The notes beneath the pieces were generated by a model. The model was given only the letters and a program-made list of their open reading frames with translations, searched no databases and was not told the origin of the DNA. This document shows, piece after piece, positions 1,877 through 33,415 of a stretch of DNA of 41,893 nt. The position numbers were made by a program, and so were the translations under genes. Where the stretch lies: assembly GCA_017936045.1 (NCBI GenBank), contig JAGBGJ010000042.1, positions 1-41,893 on the forward strand, in the 5' to 3' direction. This DNA comes from Clostridia bacterium. Lineage in GTDB: Bacteria > Bacillota > Clostridia > Oscillospirales > Acutalibacteraceae. Each line of letters begins with the position of its first letter. Within the stretch, counting starts at the first letter, position 1.

Positions 1877-4800
1877 CAAAGGACATCTACCTTAACGATG
1901 TTGATAAAATCAACTGGACTACAGGTGTGCCCGCTGATGGCTATACACCTAATTCTTGGTATGAAGTTTGGCTAACCAACGATAAGCTTGGCGGTTCCGA
2001 CTTCCAGGGCATCATCAACGGTAACGGACACGTTATTTACGGTCTTTACTACGAAGAAAATCCTGCTACTTATCAGATTTATCAAGAGGGTGCAGCCTTA
2101 ATTCCCAGAGTTAAAGAGGGTGGAGATGCTACCATTGTAAATCTTGGAATGGACTATGTGTATGTTCATGATAACTGTACGGCTTCTGCTTTCGTAGCCG
2201 TAACAATGGGTGCGGGTACAACAATTAATATTGATAGTTGCTATGTGGGCGCCAATGCCACACTTAAAGCTGCCAATGCCGGTGCGTTCCGTGGTTATGC
2301 AAGGGAATCCAGCGGCGGTTCAATTACTAACTGCTATACACTTGCTACAACAGTAGGCACCACTTCTGACGGACTTTCTGCTTACAACTGGGAATCTTCC
2401 GGCGACCAGCTTTTAATTGCTAACTGCTACAATGCAAACGGTGCTATTGCTTCAAACCATAGTGATACCGGCTATTACGCAGTTGTAGAAAATTGCTATG
2501 AAACCGAAGCCAGTTTATTCAGCGAAGGCAATACACTTCTTGTTGCAGAAAATATGCAGGGCACAGATGTTTTCACAAATGAAAACAAGATGACAGGGCT
2601 CAACACAAGCAATAAGTATGTTGCTACAGAAACCTATCCTATACTTAAGGCATTTATAGATGATGCCGAGGAACCCGTAGAACCCGAGATTCCCGATTAC
2701 GAGGTTTGGAGCGGAAATTCTGTAGAACCCACCGAAACCGATGATAAAGGCAATATCCTTATTAATAATGCCGAAGAGCTTGCATATATTATTGAAAACG
2801 GCGGTGGAGCAGGTAATAACTACAAGCTCACTACCGATATCTATCTCAACTATCTTAATATGATTGATTGGACCACAGGTAACGCTATTGGTTCTTATCG
2901 CATAAACTCTTGGAAAGACAGTGTTGCCTTCCAGGGTAATATCGATGGCGATGGCTTTGTTGTTTATGGTCTTTATATTAAGAAGAACGGTACTCCTGGC
3001 TGGGGCTTTAGCGGTCAGGGACTTATCCCCAGAGTTGAAGCAGGCGCCAGCGTAAGTGTAACCGCACTTGGTATTGACTATGCCTATGTTGCAGGTGTAA
3101 ACGGAGCATCGGCCTTTGTAGGCTTTGCAGGAACACAAAACGCAAATGTAAGAGCAAATGTTACTATTGATAAATGTTATGTTGGCGAAAATGTTGTATT
3201 AACAGGTAATGATGCCGGAGCATTCCGCGGCGGCGCATATGAATCCAACACAACAATTACCAATTCTTATTCTTTAGCAACCTTAAACGGTGCAACTACT
3301 AAGGGCCTTATTGGTAACCACTGGAATGTAAACGTAGCTATAGAAAACAGCTTTAACGCCAAGGGCGCTATAACCAGTGATGTTTATGAGTGGCCAAACA
3401 TTGCCGCTAACCTTAAAAACGTTTATGCTACCGATTCAGGAAAGTACACCAGCGAAGTAACACAGCTTACTGCCGAGAATATGAAGGGCTACGATGTACT
3501 TAAGAATGCTTCCAAAATGCCCAACCTTAACGCAGGCGGCGCATTCTATGCAACCGAAGGTTATCCTGTTCTTCGCGTATTCCTTGCAAAAACAAATCCC
3601 GAACTTTTAAAGGTTTGGGATGGCGCATCCAAAACACAGCCTGCAGGCGAGGGAAATGAAACTTCTCCCTATCTTGTATCTAACGGTGCCGAGCTTGCTT
3701 GGGTAATTTCCAACTGCAAGAACGGCGAAAACATTAAACTTACCGATGATATTTATCTTAATCTGCTCGATAAAATCAACTGGGCAACCGGCGAAGCCAA
3801 TGAGAGCTACACCCCCAACACTTGGATTAGTGATGTAGGCTTTAACGGTAATATCGATGGTGATGGTCATATAGTTTACGGTGTTTACTATAACGCAGGC
3901 CTTACTACCGACCAAATGACCGAAGGCTGGGATTCTCCCGCAGCACTTATCCCCGGTGTTGCAAACGGCGCTAACATTACCATTCAAAAGCTTGGCGTTG
4001 ATAATATGTTTATCAATGCAAATAGCGTGGCTTCTGCTTTTGTAGGTCTGGCCGGTAACAGCAGCGCAAACACCGATGCCGACAGAACCATAATTACCAT
4101 AGACCAATGCTTTGTTGGCTCACATGTAGATGTAACTGCATTTTCCGCAGGTGTATTCCGCGGCTTCTCTAAGAACAACGGAATGTATATCTACAATTCT
4201 TATAATCTCGGTAAATTCCGTTCCAATGCCGATAAAGCATCCGATATAGATGCCGGCACTTATGACTACAGATTCTCTTGGTTTGTAGCAAACAGCTGGG
4301 GACTTAAAGATGAGCTCTTTATAGAAAACTGCTATAATGCTACAGGCGCTATATTTAAGGGCAGCTGGGCAGTGCTTCATTCTCAAATTGTAAACAGCTA
4401 TGCCGCAGGTCTTACTCAGGATAAGGATGGCGATGGCGTTGCAGAAGAGGTTTGGTACTCTGCTGCAGGAAACACTCCTTTAACCGAAGACCAAATGAAG
4501 GGTAAGGATGTTTTCTCTGCTTCTGCCAAAATGCCCCTACTTAACTCCAAGGGTATGTATGTGGCTCGCGCAGGTTATCCACTGCTTAAGGTATTCGTAG
4601 GCGAAGCTGCTCAAATGCCCGAGGGTGTGTGGGATGGTTATAGCGTAGCCAAGCCCGCAGGTCTTGGAACAATTGTCAGCCCTTATCTTATTGCAACTCC
4701 TGCAGAGCTTGCATGGGCCATTTCTAACGGCGGCGGAGCTGATATGTATTTCTTACTTACAGCTGATATTTATCTAAACGATGTTTCTAAGATTAATTGG

Positions 4801-29434: not shown

Positions 29435-29641
29435 TTAAAAAGCATCTTCGCGTGTTTTTCTTTCTTCCTGCCTTTTGGCTCTTTTAGCGGTTGGCGGCAA
29501 ACCCTGTGCAATGTGGGGAAAGGGGTTGTCGGTATCGGCTGTAGGCTGAATTTCATAGGTGCCGTACTTGTTCACAAGGTCAAAAGAAGTATCGGGGTGT
29601 TTAGAATAATCGTTTGAAGATGGTGTTTTTTTGTCCTTCAT
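29435..29641 (-). CDS. Small hypothetical hydrophilic protein (68 aa)
   Basis: GGAGGGA lies 7 nt before ATG 29641, giving MKDKKTPSSNDYSKHPDTSFDLVNKYGTYEIQPTADTDNPFPHIAQGLPPTAKRAKRQEERKTREDAF. The SD lies within the upstream terminator arm. I recognise no family. Confidence 0.5.
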   Translation of the reverse strand: MKDKKTPSSNDYSKHPDTSFDLVNKYGTYEIQPTADTDNPFPHIAQGLPPTAKRAKRQEERKTREDAF

Positions 29642-29675
29642 AAAAAATCCCTCCGCCATTATTTTGGGCAGAGGG
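29642..29675 (-). terminator. Intrinsic terminator-like hairpin after the asparaginase gene; its 3' arm carries the SD of the small ORF
   Basis: The minus strand reads CCCTCTGCC, a 9-nt loop, GGCGGAGGG (one mismatch), then ATTTTTT followed directly by the ATG at 29641. Confidence 0.6.
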
Positions 29676-29687
29676 TTTAGTTTTATG

Positions 29688-30632
29688 CTAAAACAAATTT
29701 TTCAAATTTTTATTTTGGCTAATAGCAAACCAAAGCTTCATATAAACATAAGCAAAGGTGGTAAAGGGCAGGGGAATAATGCCAATACTGCTAAGCTCCT
29801 TTGCGGTATCATAGGTTGTGCCCATAGGTGCATTTGCCAAAAATACGGGAATATCCTGCTTTTGGCAGTTTTCCAAAAACCTTATAAATAAAGGATTTTG
29901 GTTGTTAACCGTTCCAGAATGATACGGCCTTAAAATAACAGCATTGTACCTGCTTACATTATATGCAAAATCATCTCCGGGCATGGTGCTTATAACAAGA
30001 ATTTTCGGGTTTTCGCAAAGCGGTACAGGGTTAATGTCAGCGCCCTTTTGGGGCTCTTCAAAACGCTCTATTTTGCCGCCACAGTAGGTGGCAAATGGCT
30101 TGCCGTTCAGGCTGAAAATACTGTCATCGGTTTCGTTAAAGGCAAGGGCATTTTCTGCCTTGTGAATAAAATGCTGTCCGTCGGGGTTTTTGTAAGAAAT
30201 ATAAACCCCAAACCTAACGCCGCTTTCAATAAGCGCCACAGCACCCTCAAAATTGGCATTCCCGTTAGAGCGGGTATCATTAAGCGGATAATTTGCCGAA
30301 ACAAAAACTATCGGAATATCGGCGCCCGAAAAAGCGCACTTAACAGCGGCCGCTGTGAAATGAAGCGAATCGGTTCCGTGGGTGATAATAATTCCATCGT
30401 AGTCCCTGTTTACGGCATCAGCCACACACTCGGTAAGCAAATTAAGATTTTTAGCACCTGAATTTTCACTAAGCAGATAATATGGCTCTGCGGTAACAAA
30501 TTCGGTGCTGTTACCATATTTTTCTTTATATGTTTTAATAAGGGTGTATTTGGCCGATTTATCGGTAGAAATCCAACCATCCTGAACGGTGCTGCCAATG
30601 GTGCCGCCTGTAAAAACAACAAGAATTTTCAA
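29688..30632 (-). CDS. ansA: L-asparaginase (type I / AnsA-like)
   Basis: KILVVFTGGTIGS contains the catalytic Thr motif, and ITHGTDSL is present. I place the start at TTG 30632 because GAGGTGA lies 5-6 nt upstream. The 25-codon extension in the track (to 30707) runs through a terminator hairpin and a promoter. Confidence 0.8.
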   Translation of the reverse strand: MKILVVFTGGTIGSTVQDGWISTDKSAKYTLIKTYKEKYGNSTEFVTAEPYYLLSENSGAKNLNLLTECVADAVNRDYDGIIITHGTDSLHFTAAAVKCAFSGADIPIVFVSANYPLNDTRSNGNANFEGAVALIESGVRFGVYISYKNPDGQHFIHKAENALAFNETDDSIFSLNGKPFATYCGGKIERFEEPQKGADINPVPLCENPKILVISTMPGDDFAYNVSRYNAVILRPYHSGTVNNQNPLFIRFLENCQKQDIPVFLANAPMGTTYDTAKELSSIGIIPLPFTTFAYVYMKLWFAISQNKNLKNLF

Positions 30633-30653: not shown

Positions 30654-30682
30654 ATTATACCCCCAAAAGGGGAGCATTGCAA
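30654..30682 (-). promoter_or_regulatory. sigma-A type promoter of the asparaginase gene
   Basis: The minus strand reads TTGCAA, a 17-nt spacer (TGCTCCCCTTTTGGGGG), then TATAAT. The -35 abuts the T-tract of the preceding terminator. Confidence 0.6.
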
Positions 30683-30716
30683 TAAGAAAAGCCGACCTTT
30701 TTTGCAAGGTCGGCTT
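30683..30716 (-). terminator. Intrinsic terminator ending the candidate RNA
   Basis: The minus strand reads AAGCCGACCTT gcaaaa AAGGTCGGCTT followed by TTCTTATT. Confidence 0.8.
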
Positions 30717-30950
30717 GATAATTTAAGTCATTGGACTAAATCCTTTCAGTTATTTGGTTTAAAAATCAAACTAACTAAACTTTCGGACTCACACCTTTAA
30801 ATTTATTTTTGGTCGGAATAAAAACTTAATTGTACTTTGGACTCACGCCTTTCTATTAGATTTCGGGGTACCTTTTCGGTTCTGTTTCCCTTCTCATCGG
30901 GTATCAGTCCTTTCCTTTCCAAGATTTTTTTAAGTTCTTATCTTTTGCAT
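30683..30950 (-). ncRNA. Candidate ~265-nt non-coding RNA (or long cis-leader) of unknown family, built from three diverged ~52-nt tandem units
   Basis: The region is bracketed by a near-consensus promoter (30955-30983) and a strong terminator (30683-30716). It contains no ORF with a credible start. The core AAAGG(C/T)GTGAGTCC(A/G)AAG recurs at 30835-30853 and 30780-30799, and a degenerate copy GAAAGGATTTAGTCCAATGAC lies at 30728-30748. Several local hairpins are present. Confidence 0.4.
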
Positions 30951-30954
30951 CTTT

Positions 30955-30983
30955 AATATACCATACATTTTCACAAATGTCAA
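30955..30983 (-). promoter_or_regulatory. sigma-A type promoter driving the candidate RNA
   Basis: The minus strand reads TTGACA, a 17-nt spacer, then TATATT with an extended -10 (TGgTATATT). Confidence 0.6.
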
Positions 30984-31030
30984 GCAAAAAGTTAATAATT
31001 TTTGTGAAAAATAAATAATTTTTAAAACTA

Positions 31031-31059
31031 TTGACTACGATTTTTAACTATGGTATAAT
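31031..31059 (+). promoter_or_regulatory. sigma-A type promoter of the GNAT gene (divergent from the RNA promoter)
   Basis: The sequence is TTGACT, a 17-nt spacer, then TATAAT with an extended TGg. This shows the track start at 31031 is promoter sequence, not coding sequence. Confidence 0.65.
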
Positions 31060-31078
31060 AAAAAATGGACGTGGTAAA

Positions 31079-31624
31079 ATGTTTCAGGTACAAAACAATC
31101 AGCAAATAACAGCAATTTATAATGAATATATGGTCTTCGATTTTCCCGGTGATGAGTTAAAACCCTTAGCCCACATCCTCTCTATGGTGGAAGATGGCAC
31201 ATGCACCTTCTATGCCTTGCGGCAGTGTGACAAGGTGCTTTCTTATTTTTCGGTTTGCCAGAACGGTCAGGGGCTGCTGGTAGATTACCTGGCCGTAAAC
31301 CCAAAACTTCGCGGGCAGGGAATAGGTAGCCAAACCCTTGATTTTTTAAAAAGCATTGCCAAAGATAAATACATAATCATTGAATGTGAAGATGTAGAAG
31401 TTGCGCAGGCCGAGGCCGAAAAAATTCAAAGGCAAAGAAGAATTAATTTCTACACCAGGGCGGGCTTTACCCTTACCGGGGTAAACTCCAACCTCTTTGG
31501 CGTGGATTACACAATTCTAACCTATCCAACGGGTATTACTCCCAGGCGGGTTAAAGAGCTTTACAGCGCAGTATACCTCAGAATGCTGGGCGAAAGTATG
31601 TTTAACAGATTTATGAAAATATAG
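31079..31624 (+). CDS. GNAT-family N-acetyltransferase
   Basis: The acetyl-CoA motif A is LAVNPKLRGQGIGSQTLDFL. The start is ATG 31079, downstream of the promoter. Confidence 0.8.
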   Translation: MFQVQNNQQITAIYNEYMVFDFPGDELKPLAHILSMVEDGTCTFYALRQCDKVLSYFSVCQNGQGLLVDYLAVNPKLRGQGIGSQTLDFLKSIAKDKYIIIECEDVEVAQAEAEKIQRQRRINFYTRAGFTLTGVNSNLFGVDYTILTYPTGITPRRVKELYSAVYLRMLGESMFNRFMKI

Positions 31625-31628
31625 CAAT

Positions 31629-31660
31629 AAAAAAAGTCTCCTGTCGGAGACTTTTTTTAT
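31629..31660. terminator. Bidirectional intrinsic terminator
   Basis: The sequence reads AAAAAA AGTCTCC tgtc GGAGACT TTTTTTT. Confidence 0.85.
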
Positions 31661-33415
31661 TTATTTTTCAATGTTGTATTTCATATTGAAGTAATCAAAA
31701 TAGTGTCTGTATTCTTCTTTGTTTCCTTCTTTTACAGCGCGCAGATATTCGTGAATTGCCAAATCCTTGTGGGCAAGTTCCAGCATACAGCCCGCAATGT
31801 TAGAGCAGTGGTCGGAAACACGCTCAAGGTTTGTAAGCAGGTCGGTTAAAACAAAACCAAGCTCAATGGTGCATTCGCCCTTTTGAAGTCTTGCAATATG
31901 GCGGCTCTTAATAGAATCCTTAAGATTATCAACAACCTGCTCTAAGGGTTCAACCTGAATGGCACTGTCAAGATTTTTGTTAATAAAGGAATCATAGGCC
32001 AAATTAACAATTTCTTTTACAGCGTTAATCATAACCGAAAGCTCTCTCTTGGCATCGCCCGAGAACTGAAGCTTCTTCTCACTTATTTCTTCCGCCGACT
32101 GTAAAACGTTAACTGCGTGGTCGGAAATTCTTTCGAAGTCATTAATTATATGAAGCAGTCTTGTAGCTTCAACACTGTCTTCAACGCTGAGCTCAAGGGA
32201 AGAAACCTTTACAAGGTAGGAGCCAAGCCTGTCCTCATACTTGTCAACCTTGTCCTCACCCTTAATAACCGCCGCATATACATTTTCGTTGTAATCATCA
32301 AGAAGAGAAAATGACTTGCTTATTGTATCAACCGAAATTTCAGCCATGGTTTCTGCAACCGACTTGCAACGGTCAACTGCAACAGCAGGTGTTGCAAATA
32401 AACGCTCGTCCAACATTTCATAACGCTCTTTTTCATCTGTATCACGAACGGTGATACAGGCGAGCTTTTCAAGATAACGTGTGAAGGGGAACCAAAGTAC
32501 GGTACAAACAATGTTAAATGCCGAATGTACAATCGCAATCCAGAAGCCATCAATTGCAATGCCGTCAAGGAAATAAAGGTCAAATACAGATTTTGCAATT
32601 GTAAAGGCAACAAGTAAAACAACAGTGCCTATAACGTTGAAATAGAGGTGAACAAAAGCGGTGCGCTTTGCATTCTTGTTAGCACCAATACAGGAAATAA
32701 GCGCAGTAGCGCAGGTACCGATGTTTTGACCCATAATAATGGGAACTGCGGCACCAAAGGAAATAGCGCCTGTTGAAGATAAGGCCTGCAAAATACCAAC
32801 CGATGCCGAGGAAGACTGAATAACAGCAGTAAGCACAGCACCTGCAATAACACCTAAAATGGGGTTGGTAAATAGGGTTAATATGTTTGCAAATTCGGGT
32901 ACATCCTTAAGTCCCGCAACAGCATCAGACATAGCCTGCATACCGGTCATAAGGGTTGCAAAGCCCAAAAGAATTACACCGGTATCCTTTTTCTTATTGG
33001 ATTTGAGGAATATAAAGAATATAACGCCGATAAGCGCTAATATCGGAACGAATGAGGATGGCTTGAATAACTGAATATACCAAGCATCACCCGAAACACC
33101 CGTAAGGCTTAAAATCCAGGCGGTAATGGTTGTACCTATGTTTGCGCCCATAATAATTGAAATTGCTTGGCGCAGCTTCATAATACCCGAGTTAACAAAG
33201 CCCACAACCATTACTGTTGTTGCCGAGGATGATTGTATAACGCAGGTTACAAGCATACCAAGTAAAAAGCCCTTAAGTGTGTTATCGGTCATTTTTTCTA
33301 AAACCTTTTTCAGTTGGCCACCGGCTTTTTTCTCAAGCGCGTTTCCCATAAGCTGCATACCAAAAAGGAAAAGCGCCAAACCGCCAATGAGGGCCAACAC
33401 ATCAAATAAATTCAT
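31661..33415 (-). CDS. Na+/phosphate cotransporter family protein with C-terminal PhoU-like domains
   Basis: The N-terminus LIGGLALFLFGMQLMGNALEK is typical of NptA/YjbB-type Na/Pi cotransporters. The C-terminal half has paired PhoU-like helices (ERISDHAVN, ERVSDHCSN). Confidence 0.9.
   Translation of the reverse strand: MNLFDVLALIGGLALFLFGMQLMGNALEKKAGGQLKKVLEKMTDNTLKGFLLGMLVTCVIQSSSATTVMVVGFVNSGIMKLRQAISIIMGANIGTTITAWILSLTGVSGDAWYIQLFKPSSFVPILALIGVIFFIFLKSNKKKDTGVILLGFATLMTGMQAMSDAVAGLKDVPEFANILTLFTNPILGVIAGAVLTAVIQSSSASVGILQALSSTGAISFGAAVPIIMGQNIGTCATALISCIGANKNAKRTAFVHLYFNVIGTVVLLVAFTIAKSVFDLYFLDGIAIDGFWIAIVHSAFNIVCTVLWFPFTRYLEKLACITVRDTDEKERYEMLDERLFATPAVAVDRCKSVAETMAEISVDTISKSFSLLDDYNENVYAAVIKGEDKVDKYEDRLGSYLVKVSSLELSVEDSVEATRLLHIINDFERISDHAVNVLQSAEEISEKKLQFSGDAKRELSVMINAVKEIVNLAYDSFINKNLDSAIQVEPLEQVVDNLKDSIKSRHIARLQKGECTIELGFVLTDLLTNLERVSDHCSNIAGCMLELAHKDLAIHEYLRAVKEGNKEEYRHYFDYFNMKYNIEK

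Follow-up and report, generated by a model that had tools for sequence, protein, structure and literature searches.

A candidate small RNA with a 13-codon reading frame and repeats resembling ribosome-binding sites, beside a GNAT gene in uncultured Clostridia

On the minus strand of a contig from a Clostridia bacterium (Acutalibacteraceae; GenBank assembly GCA_017936045.1, contig JAGBGJ010000042.1, positions 1 to 41,893), a promoter, a series of diverged repeats and an intrinsic terminator lie upstream of an asparaginase-family gene that has a promoter of its own. Is the repeat-bearing stretch a leader of that gene or a small RNA in its own right, and what are its repeats? We examined it in the whole stretch of 41,893 nucleotides, referred to here as the window, and in related loci. 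From these comparisons, the unit is best described as a strongly promoted, autonomous transcript and not as a leader. Our preferred reading, to which we give a probability of about 0.45, is an autonomous small mRNA or dual-function RNA in which translation of a short peptide would be gated by repeats that mimic a Shine-Dalgarno (SD) sequence.

Three signals delimit the unit and the gene behind it:

30955-30983, minus strand: promoter P1, TTGACA-17-TGgTATATT, with an extended -10 element, matching 11 of 12 consensus positions in the signal scan
30681-30716, minus strand: intrinsic terminator, AAGCCGACCUU-GCAAAA-AAGGUCGGCUU and then a U-run
30654-30682, minus strand: promoter P2 of the asparaginase-family gene, TTGCAA-17-TATAAT, a neighbour outside the RNA

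P1 and the terminator are present in all RNA-bearing loci, and the P1 hexamers are retained in 12/12 homologous loci; transcription of the small RNA is inferred to start near 30948. The terminator has an 11-bp stem (30716-30689, minus strand) with a T-run behind it. Among homologues this stem occurs in three different sequences, with 5 fully compensated pairs and 96% of cells paired, a covariation score reached by none of 500 shuffles. P2 is followed by GAGGTGA and then by the TTG start, at 30632 (minus strand), of the asparaginase-family gene. The P2 hexamers (TTGNAA, TATAAT) and their 17-bp spacing are constant in 10/10 asparaginase-linked loci while the spacer sequence varies freely, which argues that P2 is a real promoter. 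All three signals (P1, the terminator at 30683-30716, and P2 with its GAGGTGA) thus stand as the original prediction described them. The transcript from P1 to the terminator would measure about 266 nt in the window and 370-430 nt in relatives, and the ~266-nt stretch folds more stably than shuffled sequence (z = -3.6).

Homologues of the asparaginase-family protein, at 59-94% identity, are found in uncultured Clostridia. Their contigs share one gene order: after an Na/Pi cotransporter gene comes an oppositely oriented GNAT gene, then 400-650 nt of intergenic DNA, the asparaginase-family gene and an open reading frame (ORF) of 68-74 residues. An RNA homologue was identified in eleven loci of this gene order: L161-L169, L171, L172 and L174, together with L010, which comes from a metagenome-assembled Acutalibacteraceae genome. 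Alignment-based scans of contigs from genomes and metagenomes turned up 160 loci around asparaginases of at most 49% identity; nhmmer searches, both single-sequence and profile-based, detected the RNA there in L010 only and in none of the other 159. A scan of genome contigs with the single protein yielded no relative. No RNA homologue was found by BLASTN against plasmids and phages or by a motif scan of viral contigs, where three 18-mer matches lie inside coding sequence and are due to chance. As far as these searches reach, the RNA is restricted to a narrow clade of uncultured Acutalibacteraceae-like Clostridia. Within that clade its aligned nucleotide identity is 85-97%, against 71-86% for the flanking asparaginase and GNAT coding sequences, showing by this measure an RNA under selection and better conserved than its coding neighbours.

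The gene that accompanies the RNA most faithfully lies on its other side:

31031-31624, plus strand: divergent GNAT acetyltransferase gene, with promoter TTGACT-17-TATAAT at 31031-31059 and a likely ATG at 31079

By tblastn, the GNAT gene is present in 10/10 RNA-bearing loci that reach far enough, and absent from L173 and L175, which also lack the RNA; there an AraC-type gene precedes the asparaginase gene and a 68-residue ORF. The GNAT gene of the L175 genome sits elsewhere on the same contig, at a locus that we call L176, with a full copy of the RNA divergently beside it. In L176 the RNA and its terminator are followed only by the end of a convergent gene, with neither P2 nor a downstream gene, and the RNA unit would therefore be autonomous. 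To judge by this distribution the constant neighbour of the RNA is the GNAT gene and not the asparaginase gene, so that the position "upstream of the asparaginase gene" stressed at the outset is incidental synteny. The conserved P2, the stand-alone unit of L176 and the lack of an Rfam match do bear out the proposal that the stretch is transcribed independently and is no simple leader. With 60 clusters among 5.8 billion proteins, the GNAT family is tiny, and the protein has only generic GNAT matches in Pfam, NCBIfam and PDB sequences, with no PADLOC match.

The transcribed part had been described as holding no credible ORF. It does hold a conserved 13-codon ORF with a strong ribosome-binding site (RBS):

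30908-30920, minus strand: SD region of the small ORF, GGAAAGGAAAGGA, whose AAAGG ends 11 nt before the AUG
30856-30897, minus strand: small ORF of 13 codons plus stop, MRRETEPKRYPEI, with AUG at 30897 and UAA at 30858-30856

The order of parts is GGAAAGGAAAGGA, CUGAUACCCG, AUG, 13 codons and UAA. The SD region is invariant in all homologues, and its predicted duplex with the 3' tail of 16S rRNA has an energy of -14.4 kcal/mol. In 11/11 homologues the ORF is open in frame 0 and exactly 13 codons long, while frames 1 and 2 carry stops in most; the start is AUG or GUG (GUG in L163 and L169) and the stop UAA or UAG (UAG in L174 and L176). The peptide consensus is M-[KRN]-[RW]-E-[TI]-E-P-x5-[IF]. 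Codons 4-7 (E-T/I-E-P) change almost solely at third positions (ACA/ACT, CCG/CCT/CCA), the lone exception being ACA to ATC (T to I) in L171, and codon 13 is ATC, ATT, ATA or TTC. Pairwise differences by codon position number 139/117/209 (first/second/third), and indels fall immediately before and after the ORF but never within it. On this pattern of variation we put the chance that the small ORF is translated at roughly three in four. Two other readings of the 5' part were rejected. A 39-codon TTG ORF at 30922-30803 is broken in L163 and other homologues, and an aptamer with a three-way junction (GGACU/AGUCC, CCC-N8-GGG and a variable hairpin) fails because the variation in its "loop" and "variable hairpin" is that of an open frame, a swapped start codon and altered codons.

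Downstream of this ORF lies the diverged triplication. It had been noticed in the original prediction, and direct repeats of 31 nt (74% identity, spacing 54), 22 nt (77%, spacing 106) and 19 nt (74%, spacing 103) confirm it; an 11-nt core occurs three times, one copy lying in the 5' part of the RNA. Tandem Repeats Finder gave the units no score, since they are too diverged. The units are:

30835-30852, minus strand: core of repeat unit 1, AAAGGCGUGAGUCCAAAG, an RBS look-alike with AAG at the start position
30780-30798, minus strand: core of repeat unit 2, AAAGGUGUGAGUCCGAAAG, an RBS look-alike without a start codon
30723-30747, minus strand: repeat unit 3, an RBS that looks functional (GAAAGGA, then 9 nt) and a mini-ORF AUG ACU UAA at 30731-30723

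The modules are about 52 nt long and open with AAAGGYGUGAGUCC, which pairs with the 16S rRNA 3' tail GGAUCACCUCCUUUCU through AAAGG, GUGA and UCC. Predicted duplexes with this anti-SD sequence reach -16.4 kcal/mol for the unit 1 core and -13.0 kcal/mol for that of unit 2. The window RNA carries 5 sites of -12 kcal/mol or below in 271 nt, compared to 0.3 in shuffles, and forms the sole such cluster on either strand of the 42-kb window, where such sites occur at a background of about 1 per kb. The start position lies 10-11 nt beyond AAAGG and is occupied by AUG in the small-ORF RBS and in the last unit, and by AAG (unit 1) or AAA (unit 2) in every genome. Unit 1, whose core begins 3 nt past the small-ORF stop, is invariant in homologues save at the Y position. 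Unit 3 keeps its SD, CCAAUG and NNU-UAA in 10/10 homologues around a 9-10-nt spacer of variable sequence, and in every lineage, whatever its terminator sequence, the stop of its mini-ORF falls 6-9 nt ahead of the terminator stem. Copy number varies: the window group has 3 units, L010 has 4-5, and L174 and L176 have 5-6; these longer forms have an additional unit reading AGGUGAGUCCA-AUG. On this evidence the diverged repeats are, in our reading, copies of a ribosome-binding site. Conserved GGA is confined to the small-ORF SD and the last unit.

The internal units also contain GUG AGU CCR AAR followed by 1-2 codons and a stop, giving MSPKYN (30835-30815) and MSPKV (30789-30772, both minus strand), and CCA/CCG and AAG/AAA differences fall at third positions. 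We rejected them as independently initiated mini-ORFs: with a single nucleotide between AAAGG and the GUG, initiation directed by the SD seems unlikely. Re-initiation at these GUGs after the 13-codon ORF is possible.

A further short segment may pair with the units, and hairpins follow units 1 and 2:

30900-30910, minus strand: S0, GGACUGAUACC, between the small-ORF SD and its AUG
30817-30831, minus strand: small hairpin after unit 1, ARUUA-loop-UAAYU, followed by YCGACC at 30811-30816 (from the alignment)
30748-30776, minus strand: AU-rich hairpin after unit 2, AGUUAGUUUG ... CAAAUAACU (from minimum-free-energy folds)

S0 is complementary at 10/11 positions to the unit core GGUGUGAGUCC. In partition-function folds of 7 homologues its unpaired probability is 0.09-0.26, and it is nearly always paired with unit 1 or unit 2, a unit core being the partner in every case; this helix is predicted in 7/7 folded RNAs, both the short form and the longer L010 and L174/L176 forms. 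The original prediction had singled out the GGACT within S0 (30906-30910) as complementary to an AGTCC core in every unit. Both sequences are present in the window, but the AGTCC of unit 3 is not conserved, relatives reading AATCC, GGACC, TGACC or AGCC. The hairpin after unit 1 has modest covariation support and is weak in the window itself: its pair 2 is G:C, G:U or A:U, with A.C in L171, and its pair 3 changes from U:A to G:C in L174 and L176. The AU-rich hairpin after unit 2 is a weak candidate from folding, with paired changes seen by eye in L169 and L171. A hairpin with one compensated pair and the loop GGUAUAAAUCC is common to L010, L174 and L176.

If the preferred reading is correct, ribosomes would translate the 13-residue peptide, whose N-terminal half, xxE(T/I)EP, is constrained. 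S0 (GGACUGAUACC) would pair with the GGYGUGAGUCC core of a unit, forming a helix that encloses the ORF and hinders initiation. The unit cores would act as extended SD mimics, able to form 12-14 bp with the 16S rRNA 3' tail, with internal units offering AAG in place of AUG and the terminal unit or units offering AUG-NNN-UAA at the start position. 30S subunits docked on these decoys would free the small-ORF RBS, and a ribosome terminating 3 nt upstream of unit 1 would likewise open the masking helix. By analogy with stabilising SD sequences (STAB-SD), docked ribosomes might also coat and stabilise the RNA. If docking both frees the RBS and protects the RNA, then peptide output or RNA lifetime would track ribosome availability. 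An extension in which the decoys are a cis sensor of free 30S subunits, and the peptide or the ribosome-coated RNA works with the GNAT protein on the translation apparatus, strikes us as improbable.

Several considerations weigh against this scheme. The 16S rRNA 3' end was taken as canonical and not read from the organism. The anti-SD complementarity could be a by-product of RBS duplication, and the reader of the invariant GUGAGUCCAAAG may be a protein or another RNA rather than the ribosome. The S0-unit helix is beyond covariation testing because both partners are invariant. A few decoys cannot titrate the bulk of ribosomes, so only an effect in cis is plausible. As to the ORF, its translation is inferred from some 10 sequences in only 3-4 lineages, and although shuffling of its variable codons left all ten haplotypes stop-free in just 1.5% of trials (P = 0.015), that test treats related haplotypes as independent and thereby overstates independence. 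The 13-residue peptide, moreover, is hydrophilic and matches no known function.

Among catalogued RNA families, we found no counterpart. The covariance-model search gave no gathering-level hit to Rfam 15 in the whole window, nor in the RNA region of L010, L174, L176 or L166, in line with the earlier remark that the region matched no familiar RNA family. A permissive search of the region returned only sub-threshold hits, noise due to the terminator; the highest score, 27.9 bits for Qrr, falls short of that family's gathering threshold of 50. A literature search retrieved nothing relevant to this RNA. The small RNAs (sRNAs) SR1/SR1P of Bacillus subtilis, RNAIII/hld of Staphylococcus aureus and Spot 42/SpfP of E. 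coli have dual functions and encode peptides. Like them, the window RNA appears to be a small transcript that stands alone between a promoter and a terminator of its own and combines a very short ORF with conserved segments beyond that ORF. It differs in having no sequence or Rfam relation to any of them, in a peptide of just 13 residues, and in a non-coding part made of an RBS-derived repeat array, not of seed-bearing hairpins. The STAB-SD of Bacillus thuringiensis cryIIIA is a single SD-like element near the 5' end of a long mRNA, which it stabilises. Units 1 and 2 resemble such a decoy in that they are complementary to the 16S 3' end over an extended length but have no start codon in place, and could hold 30S subunits in the same way. 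Here, however, 2-3 start-less copies are strung along a small RNA, downstream of an ORF, and they are complementary also to the RBS spacer of that ORF. In its working, the RNA would come closest to a dual-function small RNA joined to decoy ribosome sites of the STAB-SD type.

The leading alternatives either tie the unit to the asparaginase-family gene in cis or give it a function in trans. A cis attenuator, in which a ribosome on the terminal mini-ORF, or one stalled on a leader peptide, covers the 5' arm of the terminator, would account for much of the layout. As in the trpL, tnaC and ermCL leaders, an ORF of about 13 codons with a strong RBS, present in 11/11 homologues, precedes an intrinsic terminator; its fixed length and conserved peptide motif recall arrest-peptide leaders; the distance from mini-ORF stop to stem is held across lineages with different terminators; and 10 loci show synteny of the unit with the asparaginase gene. 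A cis leader, though, needs a regulated gene downstream on the same strand, whereas L176 has the complete unit with no such gene and no P2, L173 and L175 have the asparaginase gene without the RNA, and elsewhere P2 is conserved straight after the terminator and gives the downstream gene a promoter of its own. The peptides contain no regulatory run of Asn or Asp codons and no known arrest motif, the ORF lies some 170-330 nt from the terminator, unlike in those leaders, and a ribosome at the mini-ORF stop would reach merely 1-4 nt into the 11-bp stem. Nor is any antiterminator overlapping the terminator arm conserved, as upstream CGACC and AAAGG segments do not track terminator changes. We therefore consider attenuation quite unlikely. 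The original prediction had allowed for a riboswitch or attenuator using alternative CCGACC/GGTCGG pairings, and this too loses its basis: the identity of the CCGACC of unit 1 with the terminator arm is peculiar to the window group, L010, L174 and L176 having other terminators while the YCGACC of unit 1 is kept, and the hairpin TTTATT-CCGACCAAA-AATAAA that was thought to present CCGACC is not preserved in L162, L166, L010, L174 or L176. A metabolite-binding riboswitch, single or tandem, that controls the terminator would fit the stable fold and the high sequence conservation. Against it stand the silence of Rfam, a candidate aptamer region that coincides with the ORF, the failure to find a covarying multi-stem junction or a conserved link to the terminator, and again L176 with no gene to regulate; such a riboswitch is very improbable indeed.

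A role purely in trans, without need of the peptide, is a more serious competitor, although on balance we find it rather doubtful. The AAAGGYGUGAGUCCAAAG modules would then form a sponge or platform for an RNA-binding protein or a C/U-rich sRNA, much as CsrB or RosA do, leaving the 13-codon ORF an incidental or merely regulatory feature. An independent transcription unit with a near-invariant motif in varying copy number is what such a sponge predicts, as are unit cores more constrained than the C-terminal half of the ORF and high nucleotide conservation along the whole RNA. CsrB, RsmY and RsmZ, like the ToxI arrays, likewise run from promoter to terminator through variably numbered modules with a purine-rich GG motif. 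Yet the ORF shows coding-type variation behind a canonical RBS, and no candidate binding partner was found. CsrA needs GGA, in CsrB/Rsm RNAs presented many times in hairpin loops, whereas 2/3 of the window units carry GGY (GGC or GGU in units 1 and 2) and their presentation in loops is not conserved. A CsrA sponge was rejected, as were tRNA T-arm mimicry and a T-box, their sequence features being unsuited and Rfam silent. ToxI repeats are processed-looking, near-identical tandem copies followed by a ToxN/AbiQ endoribonuclease gene; the repeats here are 74-77% identical, the downstream gene is asparaginase-family or absent, and PADLOC gave no hit. The RNA, with or without its peptide, might alternatively be a partner of the divergent GNAT, either regulating its expression or serving as an antitoxin-like decoy for a translation-targeting GNAT. 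In favour of this are the strict co-occurrence of RNA and GNAT gene, back-to-back promoters across a near-invariant 47-bp spacer, a GNAT gene that is monocistronic, and a GNAT family whose small size matches the narrow range of the RNA. But co-occurrence in one small clade may be plain synteny, the GNAT has only its generic database matches and none in PADLOC, known GNAT toxins pair with protein antitoxins of the same operon, and duplex prediction between the RNA and the GNAT 5' region gave only long, gappy, non-conserved duplexes. A GNAT partnership is thus unlikely in our estimate.

Should the small mRNA or dual-function RNA gated by SD mimics be real, it would represent an unclassified family of small-ORF-bearing RNAs found in uncultured Oscillospirales of the gut. 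What makes its design unusual is an array of SD mimics that varies in copy number, is under strong purifying selection and keeps a start codon in some copies only. It would offer a compact natural system for decoy-RBS control of translation or RNA stability in Firmicutes, and for studying the roles of 13-residue peptides and the target of a lineage-specific GNAT partner. The improbable extension to a cis 30S sensor acting with the GNAT would, if true, be a new kind of ribosome-availability switch or RNA/GNAT module.

The annotation of the region is also affected, as the stretch mimics an asparaginase leader but appears not to be one. In L176 a public 123-residue gene call (3564-3935, plus strand), which has no Pfam match, runs antisense over the RNA and is probably spurious. 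L175 and L176 belong to one contig, JAZMSR010000020.1. In this genome and in that of L173, the RNA is separated from the asparaginase-family gene by a sugar-utilisation cluster that encodes an AraC-type regulator, a zinc alcohol dehydrogenase, a GFO/IDH/MocA oxidoreductase, a DUF6259 protein and a GH3 enzyme with dockerin. By its position, this cluster shows where synteny broke.

The asparaginase-family gene itself (29688-30632, minus strand) matches Pfam PF00710, with only the N-terminal domain matching, and scores 90 bits against the NCBIfam type I asparaginase model, whose cut-off is 260; GatD models score similarly. It thus appears to be a divergent member whose substrate is not fixed by its family. 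Directly downstream of it, in all of L161-L175, lies a conserved ORF of 68-80 residues (MAEGFFMKDKKTPSSNDYSKHPDTSFDLVNKYGTYEIQPTADTDNPFPHIAQGLPP..., at 29435-29659, minus strand, in the window). The identity of this ORF across loci is 69-94%, neither Pfam nor NCBIfam matches it, and L173 and L175 have it too, although RNA and GNAT gene are missing there. The GNAT and Na/Pi-cotransporter genes converge on a perfect 16-bp hairpin (31626-31661) that has A-runs and T-runs at its flanks and is terminator-like on both strands. In L166 (2785-2985), and at the same position in L167, P2 and the asparaginase RBS are set apart by an insertion of about 200 nt, a succession of five perfect hairpins that lack U-runs (GGCGAAACA/TGTTTCGCC, GCAAAATC/GATTTTGC and others). 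The insertion has no Rfam match and looks like a miniature repeat element or a structured 5' untranslated region. Finally, P1 and the GNAT promoter stand back to back, and the AT-rich 47-bp spacer that parts their -35 boxes (30984-31030), near-invariant in 12/12 loci, holds a direct repeat, AAAATTATT ... AAAATTATT, with copies about 20 bp apart, and could be a shared operator or UP elements.

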